Below, in pieces: positions 6,101 to 40,457 of a stretch of DNA of 64,000 nt (within the stretch, counting starts at the first letter, position 1; every line of letters starts with the position of its first letter). The translations under genes and the position numbers were made by a program. The notes below the pieces were generated by a model that ran no database searches, was not told where the DNA came from, and was given only the letters and a program-made list of their open reading frames with translations. Source of the stretch: Nemertoderma westbladi (lineage: Eukaryota; Animalia; Xenacoelomorpha); NCBI GenBank assembly GCA_032718475.1, contig JAUCBJ010009132.1, forward strand, positions 114,118 through 178,117, given 5' to 3'.

Positions 6101-7225
6101 CCCGAACTACATGCCCAATTCAGTGATGTAAATGACACAGATCAAGAGTCTGAGATGGAAGGATTCTATACTGACGAATTCTCCGACGCCAACGAATCCT
6201 GTTACCTAATCAATACCGCGGTGTATCGAGCACTTACTTACGAAAAGGACACCGACAATGAGTTTCCCCCAACTACCTTTGACAGACAACCATCTTGGAA
6301 AGCTCCAACTTCCAACGTAGGAATCAGAGAATTTCCTGTAGTGCAGGTAAGAGTTCACGGTCCTAACAAAAGTTACATAGTGAACGCCCTCCTTGACTCC
6401 GGCAGCACAGGAACATTCATCGATCAAGAACTAGCCGAAGATATCTTTGCTGGACAACCCAAATTCCGGACTAAATTGAATATGTCAGGAATTATGCAGG
6501 TTTGGAAATCTACCCTAACGGCAGATTACTATGTAGGTGTGTTGTCCACCCCCCAGGATAAATTAGGAGCACAAGGTATAAGGTCGGTAAAAATGGTGGC
6601 TATAAAGAACTTCGCTACTCGCAAATACTCGCAAATACTCATCGGCCAAAACGCGCATGAGGCGCTCGAGACATTGGAGAAACGGCCTGCTCAACCGCAG
6701 CCACTACAAACCTATGCGGTAAGAACTAGAGTAGGTTGGTACTTCACTGGCCCTTCCCGTAGAACTCTCAAAGAGAGATTACCTCAACAACAGGTATACC
6801 AAGTAAAGGAATGGGAAGTGGAGAGCAGTGATGTGGACGATCCAACTGAGGGAACACCATACTCCTCAGATAATGACGATATTAACTCCAATGTAGATCA
6901 ATGGAGACATTGCCTTGGGACGATTAATCCAGCCGACATCGCTTCCAGAGGAGCAACTCCTCAAGAACTGATAGATACTCCAGGCTGGTTAGGTGGATCC
7001 GACTTCTTAAGTAAAGAAGAAGAAGAATGGCCTCCTCATCTTACCACGGCGGAGATTAGACAGGCCAAGGGAGCGGAGAAAGTAACACAACAACTCAATC
7101 GCCCAGCTAGTCGTTTATGTTTACTGGAAAGAGACCGAAAACTGTCCGGAAACTATGGAAGGCAAGATACTCTTCCTACGACCACTTCCCTAATCCGACA
7201 AATATCTAGGGACTCCATAACGTAA
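3125..7225 (+). pseudogene. BEL/Pao gag-protease polyprotein with two in-frame stops; RT, most of RNase H and integrase deleted
   Basis: ORFs 3125-3766, 3860-4591 and 4601-7225 share one frame, split by TAA (3764) and TGA (4589). Contains a BEL capsid-like block (FNGDEMKWLPF...EKLRFLIKCLEG), Cys/His knuckles (CALC..H..C, CYNC..H..C) and an aspartic protease (LLDSGS), then jumps to the RNase H C-terminal motif WRHCLGTINPADIASRG. Confidence 0.88.
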
Positions 7226-8449: not shown

Positions 8450-8925
8450 TGTTAGTATCCAAAGATACACAGTAATAACGTGACATTCTGGAAGGCACTG
8501 ACTAACGGACAAATGGCCTGTATGTGTACAATTGGTGACAGTTGTGTGGAATTTGTGCGTCTATAGGTGAATGTTACTGCTAAAGTATGTTTACAGTAGC
8601 TAGTCGCAATTGTGAAAGTAGCCCAACTCTCCTATAGAAAGAACCTAAAGTGGATTCAAGCCTTTGGCACGGACAGTGGAGTGACTTGTGCCGGTTATCG
8701 TTGTCGTGCTGTTGCTACATGTTGGCGTAAACACCGCGACGACGGTACATCGGCGCTGAGAATCCCACTGTCCGGGGGCAAAGAGAGGTAGGCAGCGACG
8801 CCCGCTCGCCTAAACATAAACTCATTACAATATTAATAAACTCAGATAGCAGATATGACGGAGTTGATAGAAGATGATCTTGGTAGCAGGGAGCGATATA
8901 CTCCACCTTTACAAGCATTTGTGGA
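8450..8925 (-). mobile_element. Possible diverged LTR fragment related to the element-2 LTR 3' half
   Basis: Three colinear short similarities (plus strand): TGTTAGTATCC (8450) vs TGTTAGTATATCC (8930); CTTGTGCCGGT (8685) vs CTTGTACCGGT (9149); GGTAGCAGGGA (8882) vs GGTAGCAAGGA (9332). Confidence 0.35.
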
Positions 8926-10067
8926 TAGATGTTAGTATATCCCTGATAGCCTCAATTTATTTGCGCCTAGCGTAAACTGCCCTACCGCCTGAACGGTACA
9001 ATCCCAATTCAGGTGAAAACACAGCAACCCCCCTAGCCTACAAGTTCTGATGTAACGGACACCGTTGTACGGCAAATAGTCGCACACACACCTGTACTTA
9101 GCAAGAGTTAAGCGTACAGTTTGCTGCACCCTAACCAATGTGTATGCCTTGTACCGGTGTGCCTACGTCCTATCTGCGTACTAGTATCTGCTCTCTCTCC
9201 CTCTCCCCCCGTAGGAATATGAAGGTCTACTGCGGTTTTCCCTGAATCAAGACAGTACAGTCCCTATGATGTAATTTTGGGCTCACAGCGTGTCACTACG
9301 TCTACCTTTTGATCTTTTGGTCTTATACTTAGGTAGCAAGGATCGAACGCTGTCTAACCTTTCAGGCGATGGGCGAATAACTCTAAAGGTATTGCGGGTT
9401 GTCTCTCGTCTACATTCCCGTGATGTTCCCGTTCATTGCTGCGGCCCGATCTCTAGCTGGCCATCCTGTCCCTGAGTTTGTTCACCGTAGTGAATCCATA
9501 GTAAAACAGAAAAGCTGAGAGAATATTCTGACTTTATTACAGAAGATACAATTATAATACAATGTAATCTGAGAATAAACTAAGCACGACAGAATAAATC
9601 TGAGAAGTATAGATATAAGATTGAGATAACTAATGAACGAATCGCACCTTTATATACTAAATTTGTGCTGCAATCAATCGAGAAAATTCTCGATTGTTCT
9701 ATGGGTTCTAACAAGGTTTTAAAGATAGCTTATTGGTCCAGCTAATATATAACTTGCACGACATTGGTTACAATCAAATAACTACAGCCTTATTGGTACA
9801 GACAAATGCAATTAATTTGTAGCGGTTAATTTAAATGAGTTGAAATTCTACACAAAAAATAATTCGCACTTACTAGGATTTGAACTCGATACCTACTATA
9901 CTTATAATTTCCAACGCTCTACCAACTGAGCTACTGAACCACTTGACCGATAGATGCATAATAGATAGAACCAATACGAATGAGAACTCAAAGCAATCTT
10001 TACAAAGTTAGTTCGAATAAAATAAATTTTTGAAAATCCACGGCATTTAGGGAATATAATTCTATAC
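8926..10067 (-). repeat. 3' LTR of element 2 (~1.14 kb)
   Basis: Matches 23569-24710 at constant offset 14643; only 2 substitutions noticed. Minus strand has three CCAAT boxes (~9732-9797), TATATAAA (~9648-9655) and AATAAA (~9533-9538 and ~8956-8961), and ends ...ACTAACA at 8930. Confidence 0.95.
9854..9940 (-). ncRNA. tRNA-like Pol III cassette in 3' LTR (A box, B box, T6 terminator)
   Basis: Minus strand GGTTCAGTAGCTCAGTTGGTAGAGCGTTGG...GAGTTCAAATCC...ATTATTTTTT. The D-stem (GCTC/GAGC) is intact; acceptor, anticodon and T stems do not pair well. Confidence 0.75.
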
Positions 10068-10918
10068 CGCTCCATGAAAACAGGATATTATCGTGCATAA
10101 AATATACGGTTTTCACCAATAATCAATCAAACTATAGAATACTTAGGGCGTACTTACATATTTACAATTAAGTTTCAAACAATACTTCCTTTCTACGTAA
10201 TGATTCGATACAAAATAATTACAAATTCAAACTTTACGTATTTAAGGCTTTACTAAGTAAGTACAATATAAATCTAAATTAAATTCACCAATATAAATCT
10301 ATTGCATCTCAGATATTGCATAAATTCAAACAATTACAAATACAAATAAATGAAAACAATAAGAAAGGCTCGCGAGTCTTCCATCTACTATTGCATCTCA
10401 AATATTGCATAAATTCAAGTAATTACAAATACTTTCGTACCTAAATGTAGATTGCATAAGTTTTGGAATAATTACAAATATGAGTCTTTCTGAGCACAAA
10501 TTTTTCTGTCTATAAAACTTTCTCTTTAGGTACAAATACTGCTTATAAGATATAAATTGCATAATATTCGGAACAATACAAATTGCATAAGTTTGGAATA
10601 ATATAAATTGTATAAGTTCGGAATAATTACAAATATAAAATATAAATTCTTACTAAATATAAATCTTACTAACTATAAGTCTTTACTTAAATATAAATAT
10701 AAACTGCATAAGTTTAGAATAATATAAACCTTTGCATCTCAAATATGAAACATAAATCTTTCAAATATAAGTTCCTTCTAAATATAAACTTTCTAAATTT
10801 CATAAATTCGGAACAATACAAATTGCATAAGTTTTCTAAATATAAAACATATAATTCAAAATAAATCACAAATCATAAGAAAGGCTCACGAGTCTTCCGT
10901 CCACCCTTGCCCTCCCTT

Positions 10919-12118
10919 TTATCGCTTAGTGGATCGAGCCCTGCCGCGTCCTCGAAAACTGCGCACAGGTGACTTTGCTCGCGATATGGGACTAATGGGG
11001 CGAGTCACTGGTTTACTTGGGACGTTGAGAGACGGTGCGACTATTTCCTCGCAAATTCGTCTATTTGGCATCCCAAAACCTCGACCAATTCCTCGTGACC
11101 GATCAGTCGTCACTACAGTTGGTAGAACGTCTGGGAACGCGTGAGAAGCGGACGACGTAGACCCAAGAGTAGCTTGCGCCCCCTGTTGATCAGCTGGTGT
11201 ATGTCCCGATCCTCCTACCGGTTCTCTTGGAAGTGATACCGTATCCCGAGTAACTCGAATAGTCGGCTCAACTCCCTTGCGTTCTTCTACATTAATAATT
11301 TTCTTCAATTGTTGGCCCACCTTCTGGACCCGTATGATCCTACCCTGCCCGTCCTCCCGAGGGTGACGTGCAGACGGCGCAACCGGAGTGGCTGATATAT
11401 TCGTCGCCTCTAGGACCTCCTCTTCCTCGAATACGCTCGCTCGTATACGTTTGTGGTAAAAGGCGGCTCGGTACGCCCATGCGACGGTTAACCAAGCTCC
11501 CTTATTCCGTTTTTCAGTTCGGAAACGATCGAATTCACCATACGTAATCCGATTAACGACTTTCTGAAAATTCCACGTGTTTTTGTTATCCGGGTGAATT
11601 TGTAACAGATACTCGCGCACCACTCGGAATCCGCTGTCGTGGGGCAAAATATCGACAACCTCGATAAGTTCGTCATATTGGGGCATAGCGGAGATATATC
11701 CTTCCGACATCATCGTCTGGGGATTTACCGCCCAAAATCCGAGATGCGCTCTCATCGGAAACCGTCTTCTTTGTGCCGATACATGTTCGTCGGCTAAATC
11801 TTCCCACTCATCAAATAACTTCCTCACGAGTTTTACAGATTCGTGTTCATAAGGTATGTCTCTCAGTTGGCATTCAGATGCTCGATGTCCCTTTATATTG
11901 CAGTAAGTACATTGAGCCATAAATCTCCAGCAAGTATAAAAGGTATGAGACCCTTGATCCCCACACCATCCACAGATTAGCTGAGTCGTAGTAATGTGCT
12001 TTCCACTGCACTTTGCCATATGATGTCCAGCGACGCCACATTTACTACACATCGTATTAGCAGGGTACCACACTCGTTCGTATATAAGATCTCCAATCGG
12101 TCGAGCGCTTCCTCCCAT
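10919..12118 (-). CDS. Accessory ORF of element 2: 399-aa protein with three CCHC zinc knuckles and an RG-rich basic tail
   Basis: CSKCGVAGHHMAKC, CGWCGDQGSHTFYTC, CTYCNIKGHRASEC; C-terminus SFRGRGRARSTKR; same strand as pol, between IN and the 3' LTR. Confidence 0.8.
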   Translation of the reverse strand: MGGSARPIGDLIYERVWYPANTMCSKCGVAGHHMAKCSGKHITTTQLICGWCGDQGSHTFYTCWRFMAQCTYCNIKGHRASECQLRDIPYEHESVKLVRKLFDEWEDLADEHVSAQRRRFPMRAHLGFWAVNPQTMMSEGYISAMPQYDELIEVVDILPHDSGFRVVREYLLQIHPDNKNTWNFQKVVNRITYGEFDRFRTEKRNKGAWLTVAWAYRAAFYHKRIRASVFEEEEVLEATNISATPVAPSARHPREDGQGRIIRVQKVGQQLKKIINVEERKGVEPTIRVTRDTVSLPREPVGGSGHTPADQQGAQATLGSTSSASHAFPDVLPTVVTTDRSRGIGRGFGMPNRRICEEIVAPSLNVPSKPVTRPISPISRAKSPVRSFRGRGRARSTKR

Positions 12119-12127
12119 ACTATAATT

Positions 12128-12729
12128 TTAATCATCTGGGTCTATGGGTTGGTAGGTTTCTGAAGGTTGTAGGCAAACTATAGCATCTGTTGCTTCAAGT
12201 TGTCGAATCTCCGTCTGAGATTTCTTCGGGAGGTTCCTTTCGATCTCAAGAAGTTCCTCTAAAGGATCGTCGGCGATCGTAGTAGTTACTTCGAATTCAT
12301 CACCAAGGTGACCGATAGGCGCGCGCGTCTGCCGTGATTCATCCGTAATCTCCACGATACGTTCTCCTTCATAGGGTAACAATGTAAACATAGATGGTCT
12401 TTCGATAAGAGATCCCGCACAGCGAAGATACACGTCTCGAAATATGCTAAATCCTGCTCGAGTAAAGGCATTGCTGTCTTTGCGAGCTTCGCTGTACTTT
12501 CTGATAATTCCTTTATACCAAATATAGTGTAGTCTTTTGCTCCAAATCGTTCGAATGAAGCTGCCGCCTCCTCTTGGATATCATATCCCCATCTCGGCTC
12601 TCTTTGTATCCCTTTCTCCATAATTAGAGGTGTAGTTACATAATCATTACTACTAGAGGGAATACAACAGAGTTTGTGGTTAGTTGTGAGGAGACGTGAG
12701 AGTTTCGTCTGCCTTTTGGGCTTCGACAA
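12128..12729 (-). pseudogene. Upstream accessory ORF (or N-terminal part of the knuckle ORF), frameshifted near 12435
   Basis: ORFs 12286-12729 and 12128-12433 overlap in different frames. The latter is in frame with 10919-12118, separated by TAA plus 9 nt. Confidence 0.5.
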
Positions 12730-13280
12730 CGCTCTAACCTCCTACCCATAGCCTAAGATCTAAGGTTTCTTTAATGACACGCTGCTTCTTATCTAAAATT
12801 TTTTGCCGAAGTAAAACGAATTTGGGCTAAACTGGCCGTGAGTCTAAAATACTCACCTTTTGATCCCAAACTATTATCAGAAAATAAGCAGTCAAGAATT
12901 AGTAATAAATATAGGGGAGTCTATTTGACGTAACTTATTGAAACAAGACCGTGTAAAATTTAATTAAAATTTTAAGAAAGGCTCGCAAGTCTTCCTCTCT
13001 TGTTTCTCTAATTTTTAAGTTCCACCCGACTGTACCCTGAAATCTATTCACTGGAGAAAATTTTAAAAATTTTTCAAATCCAAATGGATTGTCTAAAATT
13101 TCGAAAATGTCTCAATATTGTGAGTTCCAAGTAGAATTCCATTTCTTATACCTACAAATCCCGCTCCTATGTGACACATAAGGGTACTACCCTCAATGTT
13201 CACATATAAAGACAATGGAATTCTACCGCTGTCCTTACTACGGTGTACAGGTACGTGGAAATCTATTTGTAAACTCCTAA

Positions 13281-14500
13281 TTATTTACTAGTATTAGGTG
13301 GAGATTTGTAATCTCCAGACTCGTTACGAGTCTCTTCAAGGAGTACGAGACGTTGAGTCGGTCTGTCTACTGTACGACCGTCAATTGTCCGTACCGTCAC
13401 AGTTCTTGTCACTCCATCCATAAAATGACACCTGTTATCCAGAAGCGTCTTTTCAGATTCACTTCTGCCAACAGCACGTGATCTCCCGGCTTTAATGCAC
13501 GGGTGTTATTGTACCATGTTGTTCTGGCAGAAATAGAGGGCAAATAATGGTTTTGCCATATTTCCCAGAATTTGTTAGCCAGTAGTTGCGTGATTTTCCA
13601 CGCTTTTCTACCATAGCTGTCGCTTTCTATTGGAATAGAAATCGGTGTCAAAGTCGTCGGTGCCTGCATTAGCAGGTGTGCCGGTGTCAAAGCAAACTGA
13701 GATTGTTTGTCATCGGGTACTAATACTATTGGTCTAGTATTTAGTATTGCCTCGATTTCAACAAACAATGTTGTCAGTTGGTCGTCTGTTAATATGTGGT
13801 TTACTGGAATGACCTTTGCCATTGCTGTCTTTATAGATCTAATCAGTCTCTCCCAGACTCCGCCTCTCCAAGGACTATCTGGAGGATTGAACTTCCAAAC
13901 AATCTTGTGAGGTTGCAGTTCGTTCGAGATTTGATCATGATCTAATTTCTTAAAGGCTCTAGCAATCTCATTCCGAGCACCAACGAAGTTTGTCCCTTGG
14001 TCTGAGTACAAGCATTTTACTAGTCCGCGTCTAGCGATAAATCGCCGCAGTGCTAGTATAAACGCGTTGGTGGAAAGATCCATCACACGTTCAATGTGAA
14101 CTGCCCTACTGGACATACATGTGAAAATCAGTCCCCAGCGTTTTACTAGTATACGTCCACGTTTCGTATGTATGGGACCAAAGCAATCAATTCCAGTCTC
14201 TGTAAAAGGTGGTCTGAATGCTTGAAGTCGTGCTTGTGGTAGTTCACTCATTTCTTGGGTACCTATTCTAGAATGTACCTTTTTACAAATAATACACGTA
14301 CGTGTCACTGAACTTAATGCTTTACTGGGTCTAATTAATACAAATCTAGTACGTAAGTAGGAAAGACAGTGGTGTCTTCCAGCGTGTTTCAGATGTAAAT
14401 GTGCGTCCAGTATCATTGCACGTTGTAGTTCGTGATGTTGCGGTATTATTATTGGGTACCTAAAGTTTGTGTTAAAGTCAATGTTTTGAAGCCGAGATTT
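13281..14500 (-). pseudogene. BEL/Pao integrase domain (frameshifted continuation of pol)
   Basis: HHCC zinc finger; DDE motifs IDCFG / SDQGTNF / GVWER. A frameshift near 14500 restores SRLQNIDFNTNFRYPIIIP. A second lesion near 13420 continues as DGVTRTVTVRT...RPTQRLVLLEE to a stop at 13281. Confidence 0.92.
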
Positions 14501-17500
14501 ATGACAATTAAGCCATTATAAATTATCGGACTCCAACTCAGTATCGGTGACGACTTGATTGGTTGACCTTGACTTATAGATGTGAATTCGCGCGCGAAAT
14601 ATCTCAGTTGGTAATGGCGAATTAATTTAATCTCACACCTGTCAATCTCAGCCAATGTAAGTCGACGTGTGAAGTCACGTTTGCCTTTAACGTATTGTAC
14701 AAAACGTACAATCCACGCTAATTTTCGGCAAGCGTTTGACCAAGAGTCTGTTAAGTTTACAATACGGTCGACATAAGTATTTGTGACGTCATCAGGTAAG
14801 TCAATGGAGAACTTGGAAGGTTTTGAATTACTAGAAGGGCCCACGGGTCCGCCGGTAAGTATTCCCTTGTTGACTGTTGATCCGTCCGGGTCTACAAGTA
14901 ATTTGTCCTTCTTTGTCTTCTTACCTTGATTGTCGGTACTTTGTAAGTCGATCGCTAATGGTGGTTTGAACTCTATGGGGTCAGCAGGTTTCGGTAAACT
15001 TATTTTCCTGCCGACATTAATCCCAGGTCTCACCGTAGGTTGTAGGTTCGGTATGTCTCTTGAGCGCAAAGTAACACCTGTATTTACATTAGCGTAGGTA
15101 CTACCCACATCTGTAATACATGAGGTTTCACCGTGCTTATGGTTGCTCAAGTGTGTCAAAATTGGTAGTTTGTCAATACAAGGCCGCTCCAATAGGGAAA
15201 CTGCGGCTTTATTGTTAGTCAATACATTACTAGTGTCTAGTCGACTGTCTAGTAGTGTGTCTGGCGATACGTCTGGTAACGTATCTGGTTGTTTGTCAAT
15301 AGAAGGCCGCTCCAATAGGGAAACTGCGGCTTTACTGTTTGTCAGTGCGTTACTAACGTCTGGTGGAACATTTTGTGATACGTCTGGCAAAATGTCTGGT
15401 TGGCTGTCTAGTAACGTGTCTGGTTGACCGTCTGGCGATATGTCTGGTTGACCGTCTGGCGATATGTCTGGTGTAGAAAGGCTCGCAAGTCTTCCTCTCT
15501 TGACCTTTGAAGTTATATCTTTCCATTTCGCCTTCGGTTTTTTCTTGAGTTTCGCCGCCGTCGTCTTTTTCTTTGTCTTCCCCTTTTTTGGTTTCTTGAT
15601 TTCGGCGTCCTTAGGAATGGTGTTGGACTTGTTGTCGTATAACGGAGGCCAATCTTGTGTCGATTTCTGCAAGAACTGGGGTCCGTGTTGCCAAAACTCT
15701 TTGTTCTCCGGTTTACAGAATTCCTCAGGCATCATTCCTCGCGACGCAATATCAGCTGGGTTTTGTGGTCCGGGACAATGTCGCCAATCCTCTTTTATCG
15801 AACGGTCTAGAATCTCTGCGCGACGGTTAGCTACGAATGTCTTGAATTCGAGTGTGTCGTTGTTTATGTAAAATAAAACCAACGTCGCGTCAGTCCAATA
15901 AAATATCTGTAAACTCGACTGTAGTTCTGTCTGTATGAGGTTCACGATGGTGGTTGACAGGGTCGCGGCTTGTAGCTCGGCTCGTGGTGTCGTCATATAC
16001 TTAGTAGGCATGGTCTTAGCCTTGGAAGTAATGAGCGAAACATCGAACTCGTCTGATTCTACTTGTCTGCGCAAATACGCTGCCACACCAAACCCGTTGT
16101 CACTGGCGTCGGAAAAACAGTGTAGTTCCAAGTTGTCAGGAAATGTACTCTGTAATGGAAAGTAAACCCTGGGTATGAAATAATCCTCTAGCGAAGACAA
16201 TTCCGCCTCCCAGGTCTTCCATAAGTCCACTTGGTCTGATGAGATCGGCTCGTCCCATGTTAGTCCATCCTTCCATATACTGCGCATATAAATGCGAGCT
16301 TGCAGTATTACTGGACTGATGAATCCTAACGGATCGAACAATCGGCTCAACTTTGACAAGCATGATCTCTTGGTCAGTGTGTTTCCTTGACTGTCCAGTC
16401 TCACCTTCACTCGAAAGTTGTCTGTGTTTGGGTCCCAAAAGAGCCCCAACACCTTAGTCGTCGGTAGTGGTTCGAACTCTAGGTCTATATCACCACCTCC
16501 ACGCTCAGTAGTTCCGAATGAGTCAACTAATTCGGCACTGTTTGAGGCGAATTTGGTGAGGTTAAAACCTCCGCTCGCCAAGCAGTCCCGTAATTGATGT
16601 GCTACTGTTGTAGCACGTTCTACTGTGTCGCAACTTTGTAAACCGTCATCAACGTAAAAGTCACGTTCTACAATTCTAACTATCTCTGGGTCATACAGAT
16701 GTTTCTGATCTCTAGCGGCTTGCTTCAAGGCGTACATCGTACAATTTGGGCTGTCTCTGGCACCGAAGACGCGAACTTGCATTTGGTAAGTCGCTGGTGG
16801 TAGACTTAAGTCCCCTTCCGGATACCAGAGGAACCGCAAACTGTCTCTGTCTCGCTCTAACGCTTTCACTTGGTGAAACATCGCTTCAACGTCGCAAGTA
16901 AAGGCTACTTGGCGCTGACGGAAGCGCATAATCACCCCCATAAGATAGTTATTCATGTTCGGTCCATCCATCAATTCACTATTGAGGGACATTCCCTCAA
17001 ACAGAGCCGCACAGTCATTGACTACGCGTACTTTATCTGGTTTGTCGGGATGTCTCACATAGTGATGTGGCAAGTAGTACGTCTGGTCTGTCACTCGCTC
17101 CGGGTTAGTCATTCGGATAGCGTATCCCTTCGTCAAATACGTCTCCATCTGAGTGTTATACTGCAGATGGGCTTTCTCGTCCTTTAATAGACGTTGTCGG
17201 ATTGAGTGTAGACGTCTTAAAGCCAGTGGGTAGTTATTTATAAGTTTAGGACTTTGGCTACGCCATAACATACCCACCTCGTAATGTCCGTCCTCCGTCT
17301 GTCGGATAGTATCCTCCATGATCTTTAGAGATTGTTTCTCCTGTTCCGACATACAAGGGTCGTAGCTACCAGGTTCAGCTGTATCTTGTTCTAACCACCT
17401 GATAGTCTTCTCCGTTAATTCTTTGTCCAAGGCGGCTTGTTCCAACTGATGAGTTTTCAACGCGTCATCGTCGATATCGACGGGCACTGTTGAGGTTATT

Positions 17501-20500
17501 GGGGTAGGTAGACTCGCAAGCCTATCATCTGTCGTCGATGGAATCTCTAGCTGATTCGTCTTCCCCCCAATTTCTAAACTCACCTTGTGGGTTAGCTGCT
17601 CCTTGTGACTTATCATACTAGTTACACGTCTGTCATGTTTTGTCGACTGTAGTGTAGTATGGTTCACGTCGTGTGAAAAGGAATGAATTGAGTTTGTAGT
17701 CAATAAACTACATGTACTCTGTACGTCGTCTTCCTCGTCACTTACGTCTAGTGTGCGCACAGGCGCTCGAGTATACCACCCTATCGGCGTTCTGCAGGCG
17801 TATGCGTTTCCTGCTACAACTGCCGATGGTCTGGTTTCCCACACCTGGTGTAGGTTGAATTGGTCCGTCCCGATCAGCATTGCTACCGATCTATAATTGA
17901 CAGGACATTCGGGCACACCAAGGTGTCTGAAATACTTACGGTCCTCCAAAGATTGTTCCGGCACTGGACCTAGTAGGTTACTAAAGTCCTTCGTGGCCGC
18001 AAAGGTTAGATCTCTAAAGGGCAACAAAGACCTCTCCCTCTCGCTGTGTTGCGATTTTGGAAGAAGAGAGTCTAAGTCCAACTTAACTCGTGTCACTGGT
18101 ATTGCACGCTGTCCGTGCATACTACTTACTGTATAACTGACGTGCTTACCTTGTCTAAGATCTGTTACGACGTCAGCTATCTTTTCATCTACGTAACTGT
18201 GAGATGAGGCTGAGTCTAGAATCGCGTAAATCCTCTTACTCCCTTTTGTGCCAGTAACTTTTATCGGGATTACACTGAATCCCTTCAGTTGGTCAGTGGT
18301 CAGGAGCGCGATTGACGGTTGTTCGTCTCCATTTGAATATTCGTCGTCTTCTGATTCTTCGTCCGACGATCCGGATTGTTCTGAAAAGCAATCCTCTATA
18401 TGGGTCACGAAAGTCGGAGTCGTTTTCGATTCTCGTTTTCGGTAAGCCGCATCACATCTCGCTGCTGCTTCCGGGTGTTCCCTGGCGAAGCGTTTCGTCG
18501 GCGTGTGGCTGTCTGTGTGGAGCAGACCGTCGTGGTTGCGTCCACAGGATGGACAAGTGTCGGTATTTGGGCAATCCTTACGGACGTGTCCGTGTCGCGT
18601 ACACCGCCAACAAGAGTCCAGTGGCCGTATCTGCAGCCGTCGTTCTTCCGAGTTCAACTCGCGAAATTGTCGACAACCTCGTAACTTGTGACCAATATAC
18701 CGCTTACCTAGATGTTCGCAGTATTGGCAGCCGTTGAAGTCGGTGCTGAGTTGCTGTCTCGTCTGTTTCGTCCCAATGGGCGCAGATACTCTATTACCGT
18801 CTGAGAATTGTCGTGATTCCGTCGGTGTGGCGTAAGTGGCCGTCTTTGTGGATGTTGTCTGGGGTTTTTGTCGGTTGGAGGATGGCAGTGTGATCCCTTC
18901 TGCCACGATGTGCTGGTCGGTATAGTTAGATCGAGTTTCTACTACCGCCTCCCTGGATATTAAAAGGTACACATCTTCTAATTTTAGGAATCCTCCTCGC
19001 TCCTCTCGCTGGTATTCGACCTTCCTCCACTCCCGACGAAGTCGATGGTGGAGTCGTCCTATTATCTTTAATAGGACTGTAGGTGTATTCCCGTAATCAA
19101 GTTGTCCAATTGATCTTAAGGTAGTGATAGCGTTCTTAATCTCGTCAGCCAGTTTTAGTAAGTCGACGGGTTTAGTGATAGCCCCTCCCTTACAGAGTTC
19201 TTCTATTACTGACCTGGCCATACTCACTGTACCTCCGTATATCGAAGTCAAACGATCGTACGCTAGTTCGAAAGCGTCTGGTACACCGACGAAAGTCTCC
19301 GCCAAACGTTTAGGTTCTCCTGACAACGTTTGGAGCAGGTAATTGAACTTCTCCCGTGATGTAAAGGCGCACACGGCGATCTGGGATTCAATATAGTCTA
19401 CGAAGGTATGCCAGTGTTTTGAGCTACCGGAGAACTTCGGTGGTTGTTGTACCGGCAATCCCTGTCTGGCTGCGAATTTCGCTATCTCCTCGGCAACGTT
19501 CAGAGTTTCGCGTCCTTGGTTGGTAACTTGGTTGATATCCCTTCTTGGCGCTTTTCCCTGATACGATATGGGGTTTGAAGGTACCGGTCTTTGTGGTTCC
19601 TTCGGGTGTCTATTGTGTTCGAATTCGGAATTTCTCGAACTGTCGGTGTAACCTTCCTCCAGACGTTCCTCAATCCGGGCCAACTTGTTGACAATGTCGG
19701 CGAACTGTTGCGCACCGATCGCGCCCGCTGGTGGTAACGCCTTCTGTGTCGGTGTATTCTGTGGAGGATTGTCTGCAAAGGAGTTGTCTGAACGCTCGCG
19801 TTTATATTCGTCGGCCGCCCCTGTTCTAAATACCTCGCGTTTCGGGTAATCCGATTCGCTCGAAGTACTACTATCATCTGGATATGGTGGTCGACGTGCT
19901 CGCGTTCGTTGCGTTGTTCGAATTCTAACGTTCCGTTTCGGAACATCGTCCACTGATCTCCGTTGTTCGGTAGGCTCACAAGTCTTCCTCGAAGTCGTAG
20001 ATTGCGATGTAAACTGAACCGGTCGCGTATCCACTGTTCTCCGTTGTTCGGTAGGCTCACAAGTCTTCCTCGAAGTCGTAGATTGCGATGTAAACTGAAC
20101 CGGTCGCGTATCCACTGTTCTCCGTTGTTCGGTAGGCTCACAAGTCTTCCTCGAAGTCGTAGATTGCGATGTAAACTGGTTCGGTGGGCGAATGACAGCA
20201 TTCGAAACAACTGGCCTTGTAGGTCGAAACGTCATTGGATAAGCGTAATGTGTAACGGGTTTAGGTGTCAAAGGTGGACTCACCTGTTTTGTCGTCAGTA
20301 GTGCGGGTCTGGTCAATAAACTACTACGATCTGTAATCGGTGGGTTACTTACCTTGACTCTCGGAATAGGCGACGACGTTGCTCTTGGCGGTATAAACTC
20401 GTTCGGAATAACAAACCTGTGTTCCGTCGCACCATGGATAGGAGAAATATCACTACTACCCGCAATCGAAACAGGTTCCTTAGTCGTAACCGGTGCAAAC

Positions 20501-21996
20501 ATATGAGTTACCTGTGGGAATCGTTGACACACGTCTTTTACTAATTGCCGTTCCCGTCCGGGTGCTCCTACGCTTCCTTCCTTCTTCCGTTCCTGAATTT
20601 GGCGATGTCTTACCTCTAACTGGTCCAAATCATGTCCGTCACGAGATCTCATCGATCGATCGCGGGCCTTTTGATCCAGATCTTCCTCAGCGTTCGCTAA
20701 TTCTCTCGCCTTCTTCTCAAGTTCGAAATGAAGTTTAGCTGTCTTCTCTCGTTGTTCCGTTTGTCGTTGTTGCGCCTCAAATTCTGCTTGTCGTATGGCG
20801 GATTGAGCTTTTATTTGCCGTGTTTTCATTTCGGCCCGTGCTTCCGAAACTAACCTGTCTCGTTCTAATTCCGCCGCTGCCGCTGCCGCTTGTCGCTCTG
20901 ACTCTGCCGCTGCCGCTGCCGCTTGTCGCTCTGACTCTGCCGCTGCCGCTGCCGCTTGTCGCTCTGACTCTGCCGCTGCCGCTGCCGCTTGTCGGGCAAT
21001 GTCTACCTCTAACCTTTCTACTTCAGCTGCTTCTAATTCAGCTTGTTCCTGTAGATGAGAGATTCTCGCTATATTCGCAACGCGTAGCTTCTCTTCCTCT
21101 ACTGCTGCCTGCATCACTAGAAGTTGAGCTTGTTCCTCCATTTCTCGTCGTTGTCGGCAGAATTCTTGCTGTTGTCGAGCAACTTCTGACGTGACTATAC
21201 TTCCCTCGCAGATTTCGCTACGAATACTCACCAGCGATTGATTTAGTATTCCCGGTGCCGATTCGATTTGTGCGAGTGAAGTTTCCCTCGTAGCCTCCGG
21301 CACGGTTTCCCAATCCCCGACGTCTTCGCCGCACATGCGCAAGTGATCCGTCAGGTGTTTCAATTGTCCATCCAGTCGGTACAGTTCCTGTTCTTCCTCG
21401 GGTTGTAATAATTCGTCCGAAACTGACTCACCTAACAACTGGTCCGCTTGTTCCTGTTGTATCTGTCTAATCGTCGACTTAAACTGAATCAGTTTCTCTC
21501 TAGTGATCATTAGTTTCTCTAGGATTCTAAGTTGAGTATCCATGTCCTGTCTCTGTCTAGCTAGATCTTGTAAGCCAACTAAATTATCTACGGACTTATA
21601 TACTTTACTCTGTACTCTAACCTGGAGGGTGTAGAACTCGAATCGAGACATCGGAGCGGTCAACCCGTCTAATATGCGTTGGCCTTCTCCAATACTCCTG
21701 GTTATATGCGCCATGTAACCTCCGACGCTTCTAACCACACTTTCTGTGCTTCCTGCTGAACTTACCATTTCCGTTTCCCTATATCTAGGTTGCGGAACAG
21801 TTAGAAAGTCCTCGGTCCTGCCGTCGCCTCGTACTACGGCATCCGGTACTCCCGTTGGATGTACTGGTGACGCACACGGTGTAGGTTCGGTAGGCTCGCG
21901 AGTCTTCCCCTGTTGTTCTCCCGCTGCTGACTTATCCGCGTCACATGAGTCATAGTCGGTTTGTGTGTTCTTCGTATAGTCTTGTTTGTCACTCAT
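14449..21996 (-). CDS. BEL/Pao Gag-Pol polyprotein (Gag, protease, RT, RNase H), 2515 aa up to the frameshift
   Basis: Capsid-like PKFSGSSKHWHTF; three Cys/His knuckles; protease ILDSAS; RT YYLPHH, KVRVVND, FYVDD; RNase H HCFSDAS, PRAELQAA, WTDA, NPADIASRG. Confidence 0.96.
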   Translation of the reverse strand: MSDKQDYTKNTQTDYDSCDADKSAAGEQQGKTREPTEPTPCASPVHPTGVPDAVVRGDGRTEDFLTVPQPRYRETEMVSSAGSTESVVRSVGGYMAHITRSIGEGQRILDGLTAPMSRFEFYTLQVRVQSKVYKSVDNLVGLQDLARQRQDMDTQLRILEKLMITREKLIQFKSTIRQIQQEQADQLLGESVSDELLQPEEEQELYRLDGQLKHLTDHLRMCGEDVGDWETVPEATRETSLAQIESAPGILNQSLVSIRSEICEGSIVTSEVARQQQEFCRQRREMEEQAQLLVMQAAVEEEKLRVANIARISHLQEQAELEAAEVERLEVDIARQAAAAAAESERQAAAAAAESERQAAAAAAESERQAAAAAAELERDRLVSEARAEMKTRQIKAQSAIRQAEFEAQQRQTEQREKTAKLHFELEKKARELANAEEDLDQKARDRSMRSRDGHDLDQLEVRHRQIQERKKEGSVGAPGRERQLVKDVCQRFPQVTHMFAPVTTKEPVSIAGSSDISPIHGATEHRFVIPNEFIPPRATSSPIPRVKVSNPPITDRSSLLTRPALLTTKQVSPPLTPKPVTHYAYPMTFRPTRPVVSNAVIRPPNQFTSQSTTSRKTCEPTEQRRTVDTRPVQFTSQSTTSRKTCEPTEQRRTVDTRPVQFTSQSTTSRKTCEPTEQRRSVDDVPKRNVRIRTTQRTRARRPPYPDDSSTSSESDYPKREVFRTGAADEYKRERSDNSFADNPPQNTPTQKALPPAGAIGAQQFADIVNKLARIEERLEEGYTDSSRNSEFEHNRHPKEPQRPVPSNPISYQGKAPRRDINQVTNQGRETLNVAEEIAKFAARQGLPVQQPPKFSGSSKHWHTFVDYIESQIAVCAFTSREKFNYLLQTLSGEPKRLAETFVGVPDAFELAYDRLTSIYGGTVSMARSVIEELCKGGAITKPVDLLKLADEIKNAITTLRSIGQLDYGNTPTVLLKIIGRLHHRLRREWRKVEYQREERGGFLKLEDVYLLISREAVVETRSNYTDQHIVAEGITLPSSNRQKPQTTSTKTATYATPTESRQFSDGNRVSAPIGTKQTRQQLSTDFNGCQYCEHLGKRYIGHKLRGCRQFRELNSEERRLQIRPLDSCWRCTRHGHVRKDCPNTDTCPSCGRNHDGLLHTDSHTPTKRFAREHPEAAARCDAAYRKRESKTTPTFVTHIEDCFSEQSGSSDEESEDDEYSNGDEQPSIALLTTDQLKGFSVIPIKVTGTKGSKRIYAILDSASSHSYVDEKIADVVTDLRQGKHVSYTVSSMHGQRAIPVTRVKLDLDSLLPKSQHSERERSLLPFRDLTFAATKDFSNLLGPVPEQSLEDRKYFRHLGVPECPVNYRSVAMLIGTDQFNLHQVWETRPSAVVAGNAYACRTPIGWYTRAPVRTLDVSDEEDDVQSTCSLLTTNSIHSFSHDVNHTTLQSTKHDRRVTSMISHKEQLTHKVSLEIGGKTNQLEIPSTTDDRLASLPTPITSTVPVDIDDDALKTHQLEQAALDKELTEKTIRWLEQDTAEPGSYDPCMSEQEKQSLKIMEDTIRQTEDGHYEVGMLWRSQSPKLINNYPLALRRLHSIRQRLLKDEKAHLQYNTQMETYLTKGYAIRMTNPERVTDQTYYLPHHYVRHPDKPDKVRVVNDCAALFEGMSLNSELMDGPNMNNYLMGVIMRFRQRQVAFTCDVEAMFHQVKALERDRDSLRFLWYPEGDLSLPPATYQMQVRVFGARDSPNCTMYALKQAARDQKHLYDPEIVRIVERDFYVDDGLQSCDTVERATTVAHQLRDCLASGGFNLTKFASNSAELVDSFGTTERGGGDIDLEFEPLPTTKVLGLFWDPNTDNFRVKVRLDSQGNTLTKRSCLSKLSRLFDPLGFISPVILQARIYMRSIWKDGLTWDEPISSDQVDLWKTWEAELSSLEDYFIPRVYFPLQSTFPDNLELHCFSDASDNGFGVAAYLRRQVESDEFDVSLITSKAKTMPTKYMTTPRAELQAATLSTTIVNLIQTELQSSLQIFYWTDATLVLFYINNDTLEFKTFVANRRAEILDRSIKEDWRHCPGPQNPADIASRGMMPEEFCKPENKEFWQHGPQFLQKSTQDWPPLYDNKSNTIPKDAEIKKPKKGKTKKKTTAAKLKKKPKAKWKDITSKVKRGRLASLSTPDISPDGQPDISPDGQPDTLLDSQPDILPDVSQNVPPDVSNALTNSKAAVSLLERPSIDKQPDTLPDVSPDTLLDSRLDTSNVLTNNKAAVSLLERPCIDKLPILTHLSNHKHGETSCITDVGSTYANVNTGVTLRSRDIPNLQPTVRPGINVGRKISLPKPADPIEFKPPLAIDLQSTDNQGKKTKKDKLLVDPDGSTVNKGILTGGPVGPSSNSKPSKFSIDLPDDVTNTYVDRIVNLTDSWSNACRKLAWIVRFVQYVKGKRDFTRRLTLAEIDRCEIKLIRHYQLRYFAREFTSISQGQPIKSSPILSWSPIIYNGLIVINLGFKTLTLTQTLGTQ
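19950..20177. repeat. 81-bp tandem repeat (~3 copies) within gag
   Basis: Encodes QFTSQSTTSRKTCEPTEQRRTVDTRPV repeats; each copy carries the dispersed hairpin motif. Confidence 0.9.
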
Positions 21997-23568
21997 TTCG
22001 GTAGTTGTAAGTCAAGTAAAGTGAGTGTCAAAGTATCGAGTTTTACCGTATTTATATCTAAACGGTACTAATTACAGTCTTATAAAATTAGCCTACCGGC
22101 TGATTTTATAGCAGATGGATAAAATTAGCCTAAACGGCCAATTTTACAGCAAATAAATGTCACGGAATAAGTATATAATAAAATTAGCCTAGCGGCCAAT
22201 TTTACAAATAAATCGGATAACGATATGCGTTATCAAAAGGTAAATTAAATACAATAATACGGACTAATTCAGCAATGAACAAAGAAATCGTACGGAATGC
22301 ATAAATACTTGAGACAGTGGAACCCACAATAATTTTTAACTAATACGGTAATGCCTAACTTATTTATGCAACTTTTCGAACTCACCCACTCCAATAATTC
22401 TCCAGAAAAACAGATTCCCAGATACAAACCGAACGTGAACCTTTCCGTTTTTAACGTTGCGGACGAAACGCGATTTTCCCAACCAAAGTTGTTGAGTTAT
22501 CTATCTCCCAAACTTGCTAAACACGGTCTTGCTCCCGTTACAGTCTAGAAATGAGTTCTGAATCCTGAAAAACAAAAGAGTTAGGTTTCACTTTACGAAA
22601 TTTTTTGTACCGGTACAATATGGTATTTAAACCCTTTTAAACACCGGTATTCAATTCCAAAAAATTTTACACGCGGTTCAAATCAAATTTTATTTCAAAA
22701 ATTAGCACTTAGCTAATCAAATATAAATTTTTACCTCAAAATACAAAATTTTCAAATAACTTTAGTCCTACCGAACCGTAGTTCAGTAAAACATATTCCT
22801 ACTAAATTGGAGAGATACGCCTATTCCTACTATCGGAAGAGACGGTAACAATACCTGCAATATCCTACTGTAAAGTTTGTAAATCAAATCATAAATCCGA
22901 CCTTCTCACCAAAACAGTAAACCCCAAGTAAGCGAATATATTGCAGTATCGATCTCTTTTAACCGGTGAGGCAGAAAACAGTCTACGAGCAGACAAACTT
23001 CGATAAAACAAAATCCCGCGCAGCGAATCCTAAAATCAGGCTGACTCACTGACGGACTAAGGGGCTCGTATACTTTGCCGCGGTGTGATTTATATGGTTG
23101 GGCAAAGGGACGCTAGCTAGGTACAGAGCAGATTTAGAGATGTCTAACTAGCGGGCAAAGTGCAGTAAGGACGAAAGTTAATTTTATATATTTCGAGGTG
23201 TAAATAATTTCTAACGCGCGTGTGTTAATTCTGAACGGTCAAAGCAGTTTTGCTCCTTCACATATATAATTACTGGGTACGGTGTGCATTTTACGAATAT
23301 TCTAATTTGTAACTTGTAGGTCCAATACTCACGAATGATAAGGTTCCTTCCCCTCTTGCGTATTTCCAGGACTCAAATTCAGGCATAAGGTTAATACTAC
23401 GCCCAGAATTCGGCAATTTTAGGTACCAGGTCCCTGATACTAAGAAGAGATGTGTTAGTTTACTACTGTAGGCGTACGGGTACTAATAGCTATCCTGGCT
23501 CCTATCTAGAATTTTAGTCACCCAGGTAGTCCGGGTAACTTCCTATTAGGGCGTTGGCGGGGACACGG

Positions 23569-24711
23569 TAGATGTTAGTATATCCCTGATAGCCTCAATT
23601 TATTTGCGCCTAGCGTAAACTGCCCTACCGCCTGAACGGTACAATCCCAATTCAGGTGAAAACACAGCAACCCCCCTAGCCTACAAGTTCTGATGTAACG
23701 GACACCGTTGTACGGCAAATAGTCGCACACACACCTGTACTTAGCAAGAGTTAAGCGTACAGTTTGCTGCACCCTAACCAATGTGTATGCCTTGTACCGG
23801 TGTGCCTACGTCCTATCTGCGTACTAGTATCTGCTCTCTCTCCCTCTCCCCCCGTAGGAATATGAAGGTCTACTGCGGTTTTCCCTGAATCAAGACAGTA
23901 CAGTCCCTATGATGTAATTTTGGGCTCACAGCGTGTCACTACGTCTACCTGTTGATCTTTTGGTCTTACACTTAGGTAGCAAGGATCGAACGCTGTCTAA
24001 CCTTTCAGGCGATGGGCGAATAACTCTAAAGGTATTGCGGGTTGTCTCTCGTCTACATTCCCGTGATGTTCCCGTTCATTGCTGCGGCCCGATCTCTAGC
24101 TGGCCATCCTGTCCCTGAGTTTGTTCACCGTAGTGAATCCATAGTAAAACAGAAAAGCTGAGAGAATATTCTGACTTTATTACAGAAGATACAATTATAA
24201 TACAATGTAATCTGAGAATAAACTAAGCACGACAGAATAAATCTGAGAAGTATAGATATAAGATTGAGATAACTAATGAACGAATCGCACCTTTATATAC
24301 TAAATTTGTGCTGCAATCAATCGAGAAAATTCTCGATTGTTCTATGGGTTCTAACAAGGTTTTAAAGATAGCTTATTGGTCCAGCTAATATATAACTTGC
24401 ACGACATTGGTTACAATCAAATAACTACAGCCTTATTGGTACAGACAAATGCAATTAATTTGTAGCGGTTAATTTAAATGAGTTGAAATTCTACACAAAA
24501 AATAATTCGCACTTACTAGGATTTGAACTCGATACCTACTATACTTATAATTTCCAACGCTCTACCAACTGAGCTACTGAACCACTTGACCGATAGATGC
24601 ATAATAGATAGAACCAATACGAATGAGAACTCAAAGCAATCTTTACAAAGTTAGTTCGAATAAAATAAATTTTTGAAAATCCACGGCATTTAGGGAATAT
24701 AATTCTATACA
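23569..24711 (-). repeat. 5' LTR of element 2
   Basis: Begins TGTATAG (minus strand, 24711) and ends ACTAACA (23573); near-identical to 8926-10067. Confidence 0.95.
24497..24583 (-). ncRNA. tRNA-like Pol III cassette in 5' LTR
   Basis: Identical to 9854-9940. Confidence 0.75.
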
Positions 24712-25765
24712 CGGAGATGGGGTTTGCGTCAATCCCCACCCCCTTCTCGACTTAAGTCTCTAGTCTTATTCAAACCGATCACATCAACGGGTTGCGAACT
24801 GTATAATGTGTAGCAACAATGTTATTAATTTAATCACGAAGATAATTGTAACAAATTTAGGTAAAGCACGTAACATGTAATATTGTTGTAATATTTCTCA
24901 AAAGGGTTATGTACGTAAATTAATATTTAACTAAAGCACAATATTTCAATGCACTAAGAAATAAACCGAAGATATAAACTATTAATTAAACGTTAATTAA
25001 ACTCGAGACACATATTAGTAGCGCAATTATTAATATTTATTAATACTTTACACCATAATGTTCAATGACATGTTCTTCAAAACATAATTTGAAATAGAAG
25101 TAGTTTGACATCTTATTAACACCACATTTCTTACCAAAATCTTTATTGCGAATTTGTTACTTAAATATAAATGTCGATTTAATGATAACTTTTTACCGTA
25201 CGAATATGTCGGACGCCGTATTTTTTCGACCGCCATTTTTTGGTCCGTTAAACATAATCTTTGATTTCTTAAGATTTAAAATGAATGAATCGCGATTTGA
25301 GATAAAATGGTCACAGGTGTAGAAAAAGGATGTAATCCAATTTTTAATGTATATATTATACGTGCATTACGCGTACTACCCAAACTTAAGGTTTCGAATA
25401 GACAACGTGATTGGAAAAAATAATTTTTTTAACTTAATGATATTATTATTCATAATCAGTCTAGGCCTTTCTGAAATCAAAATGTTACTGATAGCTGAAC
25501 ACTGAAACTGGAAGTAATGCAAATCCATTGTTTTGTACGATGTTAATTCTTATGCACGTTGAATAAAATCCAGGATTTATATTCCGGCGTATTTTTACAG
25601 CATCGGAAGCAGTAAAAGCATCCGATGCAACTGTGACCGTTGCAACTGTGAAGCTTGTTTACAATACGAAAACGCTGTAAATAATGAAATCTTTTTGGTT
25701 TTTAAAAATGTTGAAAAAAATGCAGCTTTCATTTTGATCGAATGCCATGCGAGCACCGAAAAATA

Positions 25766-25935
25766 CATGAACGCTGCATCAAGTAGGTCCAACATGAATG
25801 CTGCACCATGTAGTTGCACCATAGATGATGCACCAAGTAGGTGCACCATGAATGCTGCACAAAGTAGGTGCACCATAAATGCTGCACCAAGTAGGTGCAT
25901 CGTGAATGCTGCACAAAGTTTGTGCACCATGAATA
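25766..25935. repeat. Degenerate 27-bp tandem repeat (~6 copies)
   Basis: Unit approximately CATGAATGCTGCACCAAGTAGGTGCAC. Confidence 0.75.
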
Positions 25936-26500
25936 CTGCTGTTCAGCGTGCAGGCGTGGTGATTCCCTTATTATGAAATGTTCTATTAAATACCATCGAA
26001 ACAAAGCAAAAAAAGTAAAAATCTCCATTCATAAAAAAACATGTAGTTATTTTTTTTATTTAATTGCCAACATAGTGCCAATAGAGTATTTCAATATTGA
26101 TTATTTTTAGTGTTATAAAATTTTTAAAATATTTTGTAAATCAACGGCATCATTCAGACCATACCCAAGACTTAAAAAGGCATATTTTCACTTTCACGTA
26201 CTATTTTCGTACGACTGTACCCGATAAAAAGTTGGGAGGTCAAAATATCGCTATTTCAAATTTATACGATTCCATTAAGGTTTGAAGACAAAATGAAGTG
26301 TGGGAGAGGGGGGGGGGGATGTTACTGCTGCACACCATTTTCTTTTAAAATATGCTGTATTATTTGCCATAAGTACCGGTATAGAAACTTGCTAAGCGAT
26401 AAATAAACTTCAGAACACTAACTGCCCAAACATTTGGCCGAGAAACGCCGGCAATATTTTGCTAAACAGCGAAGATATATATATAAGACCTTTTAAATGT

Positions 26501-27907
26501 TTAGAAGCATTTACTGTGAACTATAGATGGGCCGAATTCATCATATTCTGCTTTGGTAATCATCCTCTCTTGGAAAGTGGATGGAGCAGCGAAAATGGAA
26601 CCTCCGATCCAGGTGGAATTCTGCCTCTCTGGAGGGGCAATGATGTTAATATTCATTGTAGACGGGGCCAGAGCTGAAATCTCCTTATGTATTCGGTCAG
26701 CTAAGCCTGGGAACAAGGATGAGCCCCCAGACAATAAGACATTGGCGTAAAGATCCTTCCTGATGTCCACATCACACTTCATGATCGAATTGTAGGTCAT
26801 ATTTTGAATTCCGAGAGATTCTTTTTTTCCGATAAATGAGGGTTGGAAAAGCGCCTCAGGGCATTTGAAACGCTCGTTACCAATTGTAATGACTTGACCA
26901 TCGGGTAGTTCGTAACTCTTCTCTAAGCTGGAGTTGGAAGCAGCTGTCTGCATCTCCTGTTCAAAGTCAAGAGCTACATAAGCAATCTTCTCCTTAATGT
27001 CTTTCACAATTTCTTTTTCTGATATTTCGGCCATTTCTGCAAGGATCTGACTTAAATAAGCAGTGAGATCCCGTCCAGCAATATCTAATCGCAGGATTGC
27101 GTGCGGCAATATATTACCATCAACTATTGGAACGGTGTGAGTTACACCATATCCTGTGTCTAGTACAATACCTGTTATCTTTCCCGAAGCACAAAGTGAC
27201 AACGCAGCCTGCATGGCGATGTAGATAGCTGGAGATTTGAATGTTTCAAACATGATCTGTGTCATCTTCTCTCTGTATTGTTTAGGGTTGTGAGGAGCCT
27301 CAGTAAGAAGTACTGGGTGTTCTTCTGGGGCAACCTTGAGCACGTTGCCGAAGGTATGATGCCAGATCTTTTCCATGCCGTCCCAGTTGGTTATAAGTCC
27401 GTGCTCGATTGGGTATGTTAGAGATAGAATTCCCCGTTTACTTTGGGCCTCATCACCAACAAAACAATCTTCACTCATTCCCTAAAATTAAAGACATAGG
27501 GCCTACATTATATTCTATATTTTTGTTTGCTGTTGTATTGGAAAATTATATTACTACATCATAAAGTTGTGTGACGTGTATTAAAAACATAATTGCTAAG
27601 ATTGACTCAGGACTACATTCAAGATTTACAATTTTCCCCGAGTCACATCATATTGCTTTGTAAGAGCATGTTGGGCAGGTCTACGTACGAAAGGAAAGGT
27701 GTGTTCTTTCAAGTCTTTAGGTGTCTGCTATTTTTGGAATGTCATATTTTGCTGTAAATTTTTTGTTGGTAATGTATAATCCATTATACTTACCTGGAAT
27801 CTCTGTCTTCCCACAATGGATGGGAACACAGATCTGGGTGCATTATCACCAGCTAACCCTGCTTTAGTCGTTGCCGAACCATTGTCTATCACCACAACAG
27901 CAACCAT
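26501..27907 (-). CDS. Divergent actin-like protein, 2 exons (27907-27794, 27481-26501), ~364 aa
   Basis: Exon 1 [38 protein letters not shown]|GTAAGT; acceptor TTTTAG at 27482; intron position equivalent to that of the neighbouring actin; open to ...IVHSKCF*. Confidence 0.88.
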
Positions 27908-29207: not shown

Positions 29208-29229
29208 ATATATCACAGCAAGAAAATTT

Positions 29230-37068: not shown

Positions 37069-38425
<1,357 letters not shown>

Positions 38426-40388: not shown

Positions 40389-40457
40389 TAGAGGCCTGAT
40401 GAGTTTGGCTGTTATTGTTGACGTTTGCCTTTGTGAGATTTCACATTCTGGCCTCCT

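Follow-up and report, generated by a model that had tools for sequence, protein, structure and literature searches.

A spliced BEL/Pao retrotransposon of Nemertoderma westbladi with two accessory reading frames and a dispersed 20-nt inverted-repeat motif

Can a BEL/Pao retrotransposon encode an accessory protein that works through short sites dispersed over its own genome? This question is raised by a 15.8-kb long terminal repeat (LTR) retrotransposon of this class, a member of a multi-copy family, that lies on the minus strand at 8930-24711 of a 64,000-nucleotide (nt) stretch of Nemertoderma westbladi contig JAUCBJ010009132.1; this whole stretch is the window, and all coordinates are positions in it. 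A preliminary description had joined five features into one system: an extra gene with CCHC zinc knuckles, a nine-copy hairpin, a tRNA-like cassette in the LTRs, the lack of a canonical primer-binding site (PBS), and splice signals. The complex anatomy of the element is well supported by our analysis and is stronger than had been claimed, with a reading frame under selection, a second open reading frame (ORF), and a splice joint; the unity of the five features, on the other hand, is unsupported.

The accessory region lies between the integrase gene and the 3' LTR (Table 1). This distance is 3.3 kb in the element compared with 223-649 nt in 16 related loci, as calculated by subtraction (79 related loci were examined, 72 with integrase and 16 with a visible 3' LTR start). 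The larger frame, ORF-A, has an acidic N-terminus, three CCHC knuckles, a central region, and a Pro/Ser- and Arg-rich tail in which 10 of the last 30 residues are Arg or Lys. Knuckles and Arg-rich tails are typical RNA-binding features, and knuckles bind mainly single-stranded nucleic acids. The three knuckles of the proposed extra gene are indeed found within 10919-12127, but this 399-amino-acid (aa) ORF does not stand alone, as the frame extends upstream over 12128-12580. The stop between the two parts is private to this copy: nearly all sequencing depth there differs from it in all four public runs (X1-X4, which gave 23098, 9286, 858, and 67 contigs matching across the stretch). The intact frame therefore likely runs for about 490 codons from the ATG at 12391.

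Eight of 11 listed common variants in the knuckle frame are synonymous, compared with 3.2 expected (P=0.003); in gag-pol, for comparison, the figures are 11 of 19 and 5.9. These counts come from the best-supported variants (best 40 of 725; best 40 of 69), with the stop positions excluded. Judged from such sequence variants, purifying selection on the triple-CCHC frame is confirmed. The part of the frame upstream of the stop gains no added support, as only one of its three listed variants (12172, 12173, and 12296) is synonymous. As 2 of 3 variants in ORF-B are synonymous in its own frame and spanning sister contigs show no gap in 12297-12436, ORF-A and ORF-B are probably separate genes; no -1 slippery site was found between them.

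We searched for homologues with the C-terminal 399 aa of ORF-A, the N-terminal part being scanned against Pfam only. Among 1.84 billion representatives there was one match, confined to the knuckles of a Coffea protein; the atlas matches were all below 0.9 and to CCHC-rich proteins, and the best match in the PDB had an E of 0.55. The single-sequence fold prediction of ORF-A has a pLDDT of 36. No homologue of ORF-B was found, its atlas matches being inconsistent and taken as noise, and neither ORF matched an envelope family in Pfam. We also considered ORF-A as a duplicate of the nucleocapsid knuckles of Gag and rejected this idea, since the two show no similarity.

How could these frames be expressed? 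One contig of run X4 joins 22386 to 12652, connecting the leader to ORF-B. The excised segment has CT..AC ends, corresponding to GT..AG on the element strand; this joint implies that a spliced RNA lacking gag-pol exists, both if X4 is an RNA run and if the contig stems from retroposition of a spliced copy. Both sites also appear in a mechanical scan, made after the joint had been seen, which returned 40 donors and 9 acceptors in 15.8 kb. The joint is absent from the joints listed for the other three runs, with 32 further joints beyond those listed. The depth profile of X4 is RNA-like in look, contig depth being no proof of expression. Among the splice signals described earlier, then, one donor/acceptor pair is backed by a contig joint, but the backing is limited to that pair. 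An accessory protein made from a spliced mRNA, as in known export systems, is thus suggested by a GT-AG joint seen in one contig of one of the four runs. Further strong splice-like sites lie at 22565-23332 (a possible intron of the 5' untranslated region, UTR) and at 12856, a donor upstream of the accessory acceptor; no joint is listed for either.

The cis-acting candidate is a short inverted repeat. In its exact form, AGGCTCRCRAGTCTT, it occurs 8 times in the element compared with 0.04 expected, and the relaxed form AGRC-N6-GYCT occurs 13 times compared with 0.27 in shuffled sequences (shuffle maximum 3). When pairing of the inner bases is required, there are 0 copies in the 31 kb of remaining window and 6 in 603 kb of relatives; without this requirement, the remaining window has 2. 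A spacer of 6 alone is enriched, other lengths giving 0-3 in the element. The nine copies of the preliminary description correspond to the 8 exact copies plus the inverted, divergent copy at 17507; the enrichment holds up, but on the genomic strand the copies make poor hairpins.

The copies are spread over three reading phases and non-coding DNA, and the constraint therefore acts on nucleotides. Their inner bases can pair in all 13 cases, in four combinations (T-A, A-T, G-C, and G-T), including all 4 divergent copies. In the 10 copies with a YGYG-type loop, variation on the genomic strand is found at pyrimidines only, and the core loops retain two Gs. Spacing is moderately regular in a post hoc analysis (coefficient of variation 0.38, P=0.014 with 7 sites; 0.49, P=0.037 with 8 sites). 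LTR and leader are free of sites. Some copies share a longer context of 26-59 nt.

Three further observations concern the motif. An X4 contig matches the element from the motif start at 10366, preceded by at least 255 unrelated letters, which hints at the motif in another sequence context. A related inverted repeat with a longer spacer lies at 13314-13336, directly after integrase. Finally, contig joints in X1/X3 (10342->12973 and 10348->10870) connect motif-bearing modules and so yield derivatives that lack the accessory ORFs; these joints may have arisen by template switching at the motif.

How might protein and motif be connected? We tentatively propose a scheme like those of CERV and Rev, in which the knuckle protein binds the 13 sites as RNA stem-loops and thereby promotes export or packaging. 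A spliced subgenomic RNA would yield the ORF-A knuckle protein, as both accessory proteins would be made from spliced RNA; the motif sites would act as RNA, coated as stem-loops by ORF-A and not by Gag or a host protein; and the coated, unspliced genome would be licensed for export or packaging despite its intron. Equally tentative is the wider picture of a distributed response element, with a dozen 20-nt sites and a knuckle protein from spliced RNA, possibly together with priming by a 5' tRNA-Gly fragment. The A/B-box relic of the LTR is most likely a separate trait, and so is the odd PBS. In favor of the stem-loop scheme we count the GT-AG joint, selection on ORF-A, its knuckles and Arg tail, the motif enrichment and inner pairing, the joint absence of motif and ORF from 79 of 79 related loci, and the precedent of CERV.

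In the Rev/RRE and Tat/TAR systems, the accessory ORFs belong to spliced RNA; the Rev response element (RRE) is one large intronic structure, and the trans-activation response element (TAR) is one 5' hairpin. Our element resembles these systems in having accessory ORFs from spliced RNA and an Arg-rich tail. Unlike the RRE and TAR, it has 13 weak 20-nt sites, of which 4 are not intronic; the LTR has none. A closer precedent, missing from the preliminary description, comes from Cer1 of C. elegans, a Ty3/gypsy-type element. According to the accessible part of PMC10309623, which also describes Rev, the Cer1 protein CERV is translated from a spliced mRNA and is required for export of the unspliced RNA. 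By description, ORF-A is like CERV in being a putative spliced-mRNA product with a cysteine-rich region. In contrast to ORF-A, CERV has sequence in common with GAG, and in place of three CCHC knuckles it carries a candidate C4 finger; the word 'stem-loop' is absent from the text of that paper (PMC10309623).

Several results weigh against the stem-loop scheme. Core copies fold at only -0.4 to -2.9 kcal/mol on the genomic strand, where 10 of 13 copies have an A-C opposition, and of the 13 contexts, 2 have a populated stem on this strand compared with 7 on the opposite strand. Covariation does not rise above shuffles (144/500 and 401/500, with 7 distinct sequences among 10 core-like copies). Two copies are inverted, which fits a DNA site. 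Nine of the 13 sites are intronic and 4 lie in the spliced exon, so that the motif is not confined to unspliced RNA and therefore does not mark it the way an RRE does. The splice joint comes from a single contig, one side of which is 30 nt long, in one of four runs, and whether X4 holds DNA or RNA sequence can only be guessed. No homologue of ORF-A that could serve as a functional guide turned up in the 5.8-billion search or in metagenome contigs. Lastly, the strict motif or A/B-box pattern is found in 0 of 79 distant loci, all encoding related pol, and no ORF-A-like downstream ORF is found among them (one match, E 0.063); this joint absence is neutral on coupling because intermediate relatives are lacking.

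A fixed-spacing, asymmetric DNA site fits the motif about as well as an RNA stem-loop does. In this alternative, which we hold to be nearly as probable as the stem-loop scheme, the motif is a double-stranded DNA site (AGAC-N6-GCCT, in either orientation) through which an accessory or host factor keeps the 16-kb element open, as VANC does; the A and B boxes of U3 could add a boundary function. Consistent with such a site, 12 of 13 copies combine an AGAC arm with an AGGC arm, 2 of these being inverted, the spacer is fixed at 6, and the sites recur at roughly 2-2.5 kb across three reading phases and in non-coding DNA too. Also consistent is that the element shows no CpG depletion (observed/expected 1.14 compared with 0.72-0.98 elsewhere), but a young element would lack it anyway. 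On the other hand, a DNA site would make the inner-base complementarity of 4 of 4 divergent copies superfluous (about 0.02 by chance, by our own estimate), and the one-sided loop changes of the core copies, the lack of sites in LTR and leader, and the established preference of CCHC knuckles for single strands all speak against it. One set of sites is tandemly triplicated, as VANC targets often are (accessible part of PMC5735166). As described there, the VANDAL elements that encode VANC likewise have an extra protein and short motifs multiplied inside them, partly in tandem; in contrast to our element, they are plant DNA transposons with demonstrated DNA binding and mainly non-coding targets (PMC5735166), and our element shows no Pfam resemblance to them.

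Slightly less probable again, in our view, is that the features are independent of one another, with the Gag nucleocapsid or a host RNA-binding protein reading the sites for packaging, localisation, or stability, and the accessory proteins, for example, countering small-RNA silencing. Such independence would be in line with the triple Cys-His box that Gag has of its own, the difference between ORF-A and the Gag knuckles, the lineage-wide PBS oddity, the deletion derivatives without the accessory region (joint 10342->12973), and the tRNA-like LTR sequence found elsewhere without an accessory gene (accessible part of PMC10886601); against it, motif and ORF-A are both unique to the element's family among the 79 related-pol loci. 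Least probable by far is that the motif has no selected role and arose as a by-product, with template switching and duplication spreading a short near-palindrome into linkers: shared contexts of 26-59 nt, the three copies from one triplication, and the joints 10342->12973 and 10348->10870 between motif-bearing modules would fit, but 13 copies stand against 0.27 expected, and the divergent copies in reverse transcriptase (RT)/RNase H (RH), integrase, and the ORF overlap retain arms and 6-nt spacing while their spacer letters differ.

Returning to the scheme of a knuckle protein on RNA stem-loops, splice-encoded factors of LTR retrotransposons have a precedent in CERV; a matching dispersed cis code would be new. 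Protein and 20-nt site together offer a concrete case for asking how an intron-bearing retroelement gets its RNA past nuclear retention or silencing. The BEL/Pao family described here has non-env accessory genes that are spliced and under selection, which shows that 'complex' organisation arose in it too. We found no published account of this combination of features in the literature reached, which left out most subscription papers and Repbase; the supplements of PMC3118150 may hold long BEL elements.

The assignment to BEL/Pao follows from an LTR-flanked gag-pol in the order protease (PR)-RT-RH-integrase (IN), a triple Cys-His Gag box, which is a comparison feature of BEL/Pao in the accessible part of PMC554778, and Pao-type RT/RH similarity (2038 matches at E<=1e-50). 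The gag-pol ORF has 2515 codons from the ATG at 21996, with the motifs ILDS in protease, YVDD in RT, and FSDAS in RNase H, and it matches Peptidase_A17 (PF05380, E 7.8e-42) and DUF1759 in Pfam. Some sister contigs have a length difference at the frame change between pol and integrase. The RT is about 43% identical to its nearest match; over RT-RH, most best matches share 39-45% and one shares 33%, those with names being mainly from marine invertebrates. The RT branch is long (0.97 compared with a median of 0.22, in a tree of 89 sequences without named reference elements), and sequence searches found no close relative.

Known belpaovirids (PMC8742986 and the accessible part of PMC554778) share with the element LTRs of about 1.1 kb, the PR-RT-RH-IN order, the triple Cys-His Gag box, YVDD, DAS, Peptidase_A17, DUF1759, and DUF5641. 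The profile of the Belpaoviridae by the ICTV (the international committee for virus taxonomy) gives sizes of 4.2-10 kb, compared with 15.8 kb here, names gag, pol, and env as the only genes, and calls replication poorly understood (PMC8742986). Unlike these belpaovirids, our element has two extra ORFs without an env match, a dispersed motif, no 18-nt PBS matching a tRNA 3' end, and a position on a long branch without a close relative found.

The element had been called young, and its LTRs do differ at just 2 of 1142 positions (99.8% identity), but a target-site duplication is absent at this copy and its frames are broken. The flanks differ, for which, in this one copy, rearrangement or mis-assembly are possible causes. 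Identical four bases follow each LTR end (8926-8929 and 23569-23572); the first base of the LTRs differs, which leaves the terminus ambiguous by 1-2 nt. The left flank (8600-8928) is a very high-copy repeat whose usual continuation in other copies is not in the window, and the right flank is low-copy. In X3, single element contigs reach a depth of about 10,000 compared with 14 for a flank contig, which suggests a copy number in the hundreds, a rough figure because depth is not copy number.

Two of the five features drop out of the proposed system: an odd PBS is common in relatives, the LTR cassette is a degenerate relic, and neither has a tie to the knuckle protein. The cassette has the expected A box (24576), B box (24528), and T6 (24502), about 200 nt upstream of the TATA box, but it lacks a tRNA fold. 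ARAGORN found no tRNA gene in it (a relaxed run with introns gave noise), the Rfam tRNA model is matched at 12.8 bits (E 6.1), below its cut-off of 29, and folding gives a z of about 0 and no cloverleaf. That the cassette stands in both LTRs counts as a single observation. On sequence grounds, we class the cassette as a degenerate RNA polymerase (Pol) III relic of the type known from Helenus LTRs, whose tRNA-like sequence is proposed to stem from insertion of a short interspersed element (accessible part of PMC10886601). Helenus elements, which are terminal-repeat retrotransposons in miniature (TRIMs), also have this sequence inside the LTR; they are short and non-autonomous (PMC10886601), in contrast to our 15.8-kb element with gag-pol and a degenerate cassette upstream of a Pol II TATA box, a difference that rules out membership in Helenus/TRIMp3. 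The summed depth of U3 exceeds that of U5 (9600-10163) in all three runs examined, most in X4; sharing of U3 with other families and RNA 3' ends are both possible reasons. A 15-nt stretch of ORF-A (11116-11130) is complementary to the D-loop part of the cassette (24557-24571), a match near chance level.

As the preliminary description had noted, a TGG-type start is absent after the LTR, and the PBS region is identical in sister contigs of 2 runs. The 18-nt PBS of the ICTV profile, which pairs with the 3' end of tRNA-Arg or -Gly (PMC8742986), is thus not present. Among the 39 related loci that have a terminal repeat, a CA end is visible in 13 (11 distinct sequences), and TGG directly follows the LTR in 1 of these 13; the non-TGG PBS is therefore a lineage-wide trait and no strict family marker. 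The 22 nt after the LTR form 14 Watson-Crick and 3 G-U pairs with the 5' 22 nt of the human tRNA-Gly half (accessible part of PMC8256553), covering all 8 positions that adjoin the LTR (by hand); this is a post hoc comparison with a human, not a host, tRNA, with a rough chance estimate of a few per cent. We rejected the idea that the element primes itself through the LTR cassette or through the 5' end of its RNA, as the longest match to the PBS is 6-7 nt. Cer7 reportedly encodes its own tRNA, though we found no paper on it. Among 120 loci of viral contigs with a PBS-like pattern, ARAGORN found tRNAs in 1, which is chance level in a test that is weak for eukaryotic tRNA. In three relatives (L010, L017, and L060), the interior opens with a T-loop/B-box-like word and not with a TGG PBS.

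Table 1 Features of the element, by position in the window.
Feature	Position	Strand	Remarks
5' LTR	23573..24711	-	1139 nt, TG...CA; first 1-2 nt ambiguous
Degenerate tRNA-derived Pol III cassette	24497..24585 (twin 9854-9942)	-	U3; A box, B box, T6
Consensus Pol II signals	24176..24439	-	three CCAAT, TATA 24299, AATAAA 24181; putative function
Non-TGG primer-binding region	23551..23572	-	partial complement of tRNA-Gly 5' 22 nt; lead only
Intron GT...AG removing gag-pol	12653..22385	-	9733 nt; one contig of run X4
gag-pro-RT-RH ORF	14449..21996	-	BEL-type triple Cys-His box, ILDS, YVDD, FSDAS
Integrase	13409..14515	-	frame differs from pol in this copy; DUF5641, H2C2
Accessory ORF-B	12286..12621	-	111 aa, ATG 12621; first long ORF after splice acceptor; overlaps ORF-A
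Accessory ORF-A frame	10919..12391	-	~490 codons from ATG 12391; stop at 12128-12130 in this copy
ORF-A CCHC knuckles	12049-12008, 11974-11930, 11911-11870	-	within 10919-12127
3' LTR	8930..10068	-	preceded by short atypical purine run
Motif core copy	21889..21908	-	in gag
Motif core copies x3	19969..20150	-	81-nt tandem triplication in gag
Motif copy, arms swapped (inverted)	17507..17526	-	PR-RT linker
Divergent motif copy, arms swapped	16192..16211	-	in RT/RH
Motif core copy	15476..15495	-	RH-IN linker
Divergent motif copy, perfect arms	14361..14380	-	in integrase
Motif core copy	12976..12995	-	between integrase and accessory ORFs
Divergent motif copy	12463..12482	-	in ORF-B
Divergent motif copy	12314..12333	-	ORF-A/B overlap; inner pair altered on both sides
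Motif core copy	10879..10898	-	directly after ORF-A stop
Motif core copy	10363..10382	-	AT-rich 3' UTR

Elsewhere in the window, a second, decayed BEL/Pao element lies at 3100-7225 on the plus strand; its gag and protease abut an RNase H-end fragment, RT is missing, and the motif is absent. Upstream of it is a duplicated block of about 310 nt (about 1230-1850). By inspection, there are two actin genes, a strongly diverged one at 26501-27481 and another at 37069-38073, and fragments of non-LTR retrotransposon RT, with a duplicated 3' end, lie at 28790-32260 on the minus strand. A basic helix-loop-helix ORF at 46639-47109 on the plus strand presumably resembles Twist. Tandem arrays with units of 27, 51, 37, and 45/46 nt occupy 25739-25954, 39069-40492, 47104 to about 48900, and 49758-64000, respectively. 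Beyond the element of one relative, a 369-aa ORF (L046:7879-8985) encodes what we take, by its look, to be a transposon protein of the tyrosine-recombinase type.

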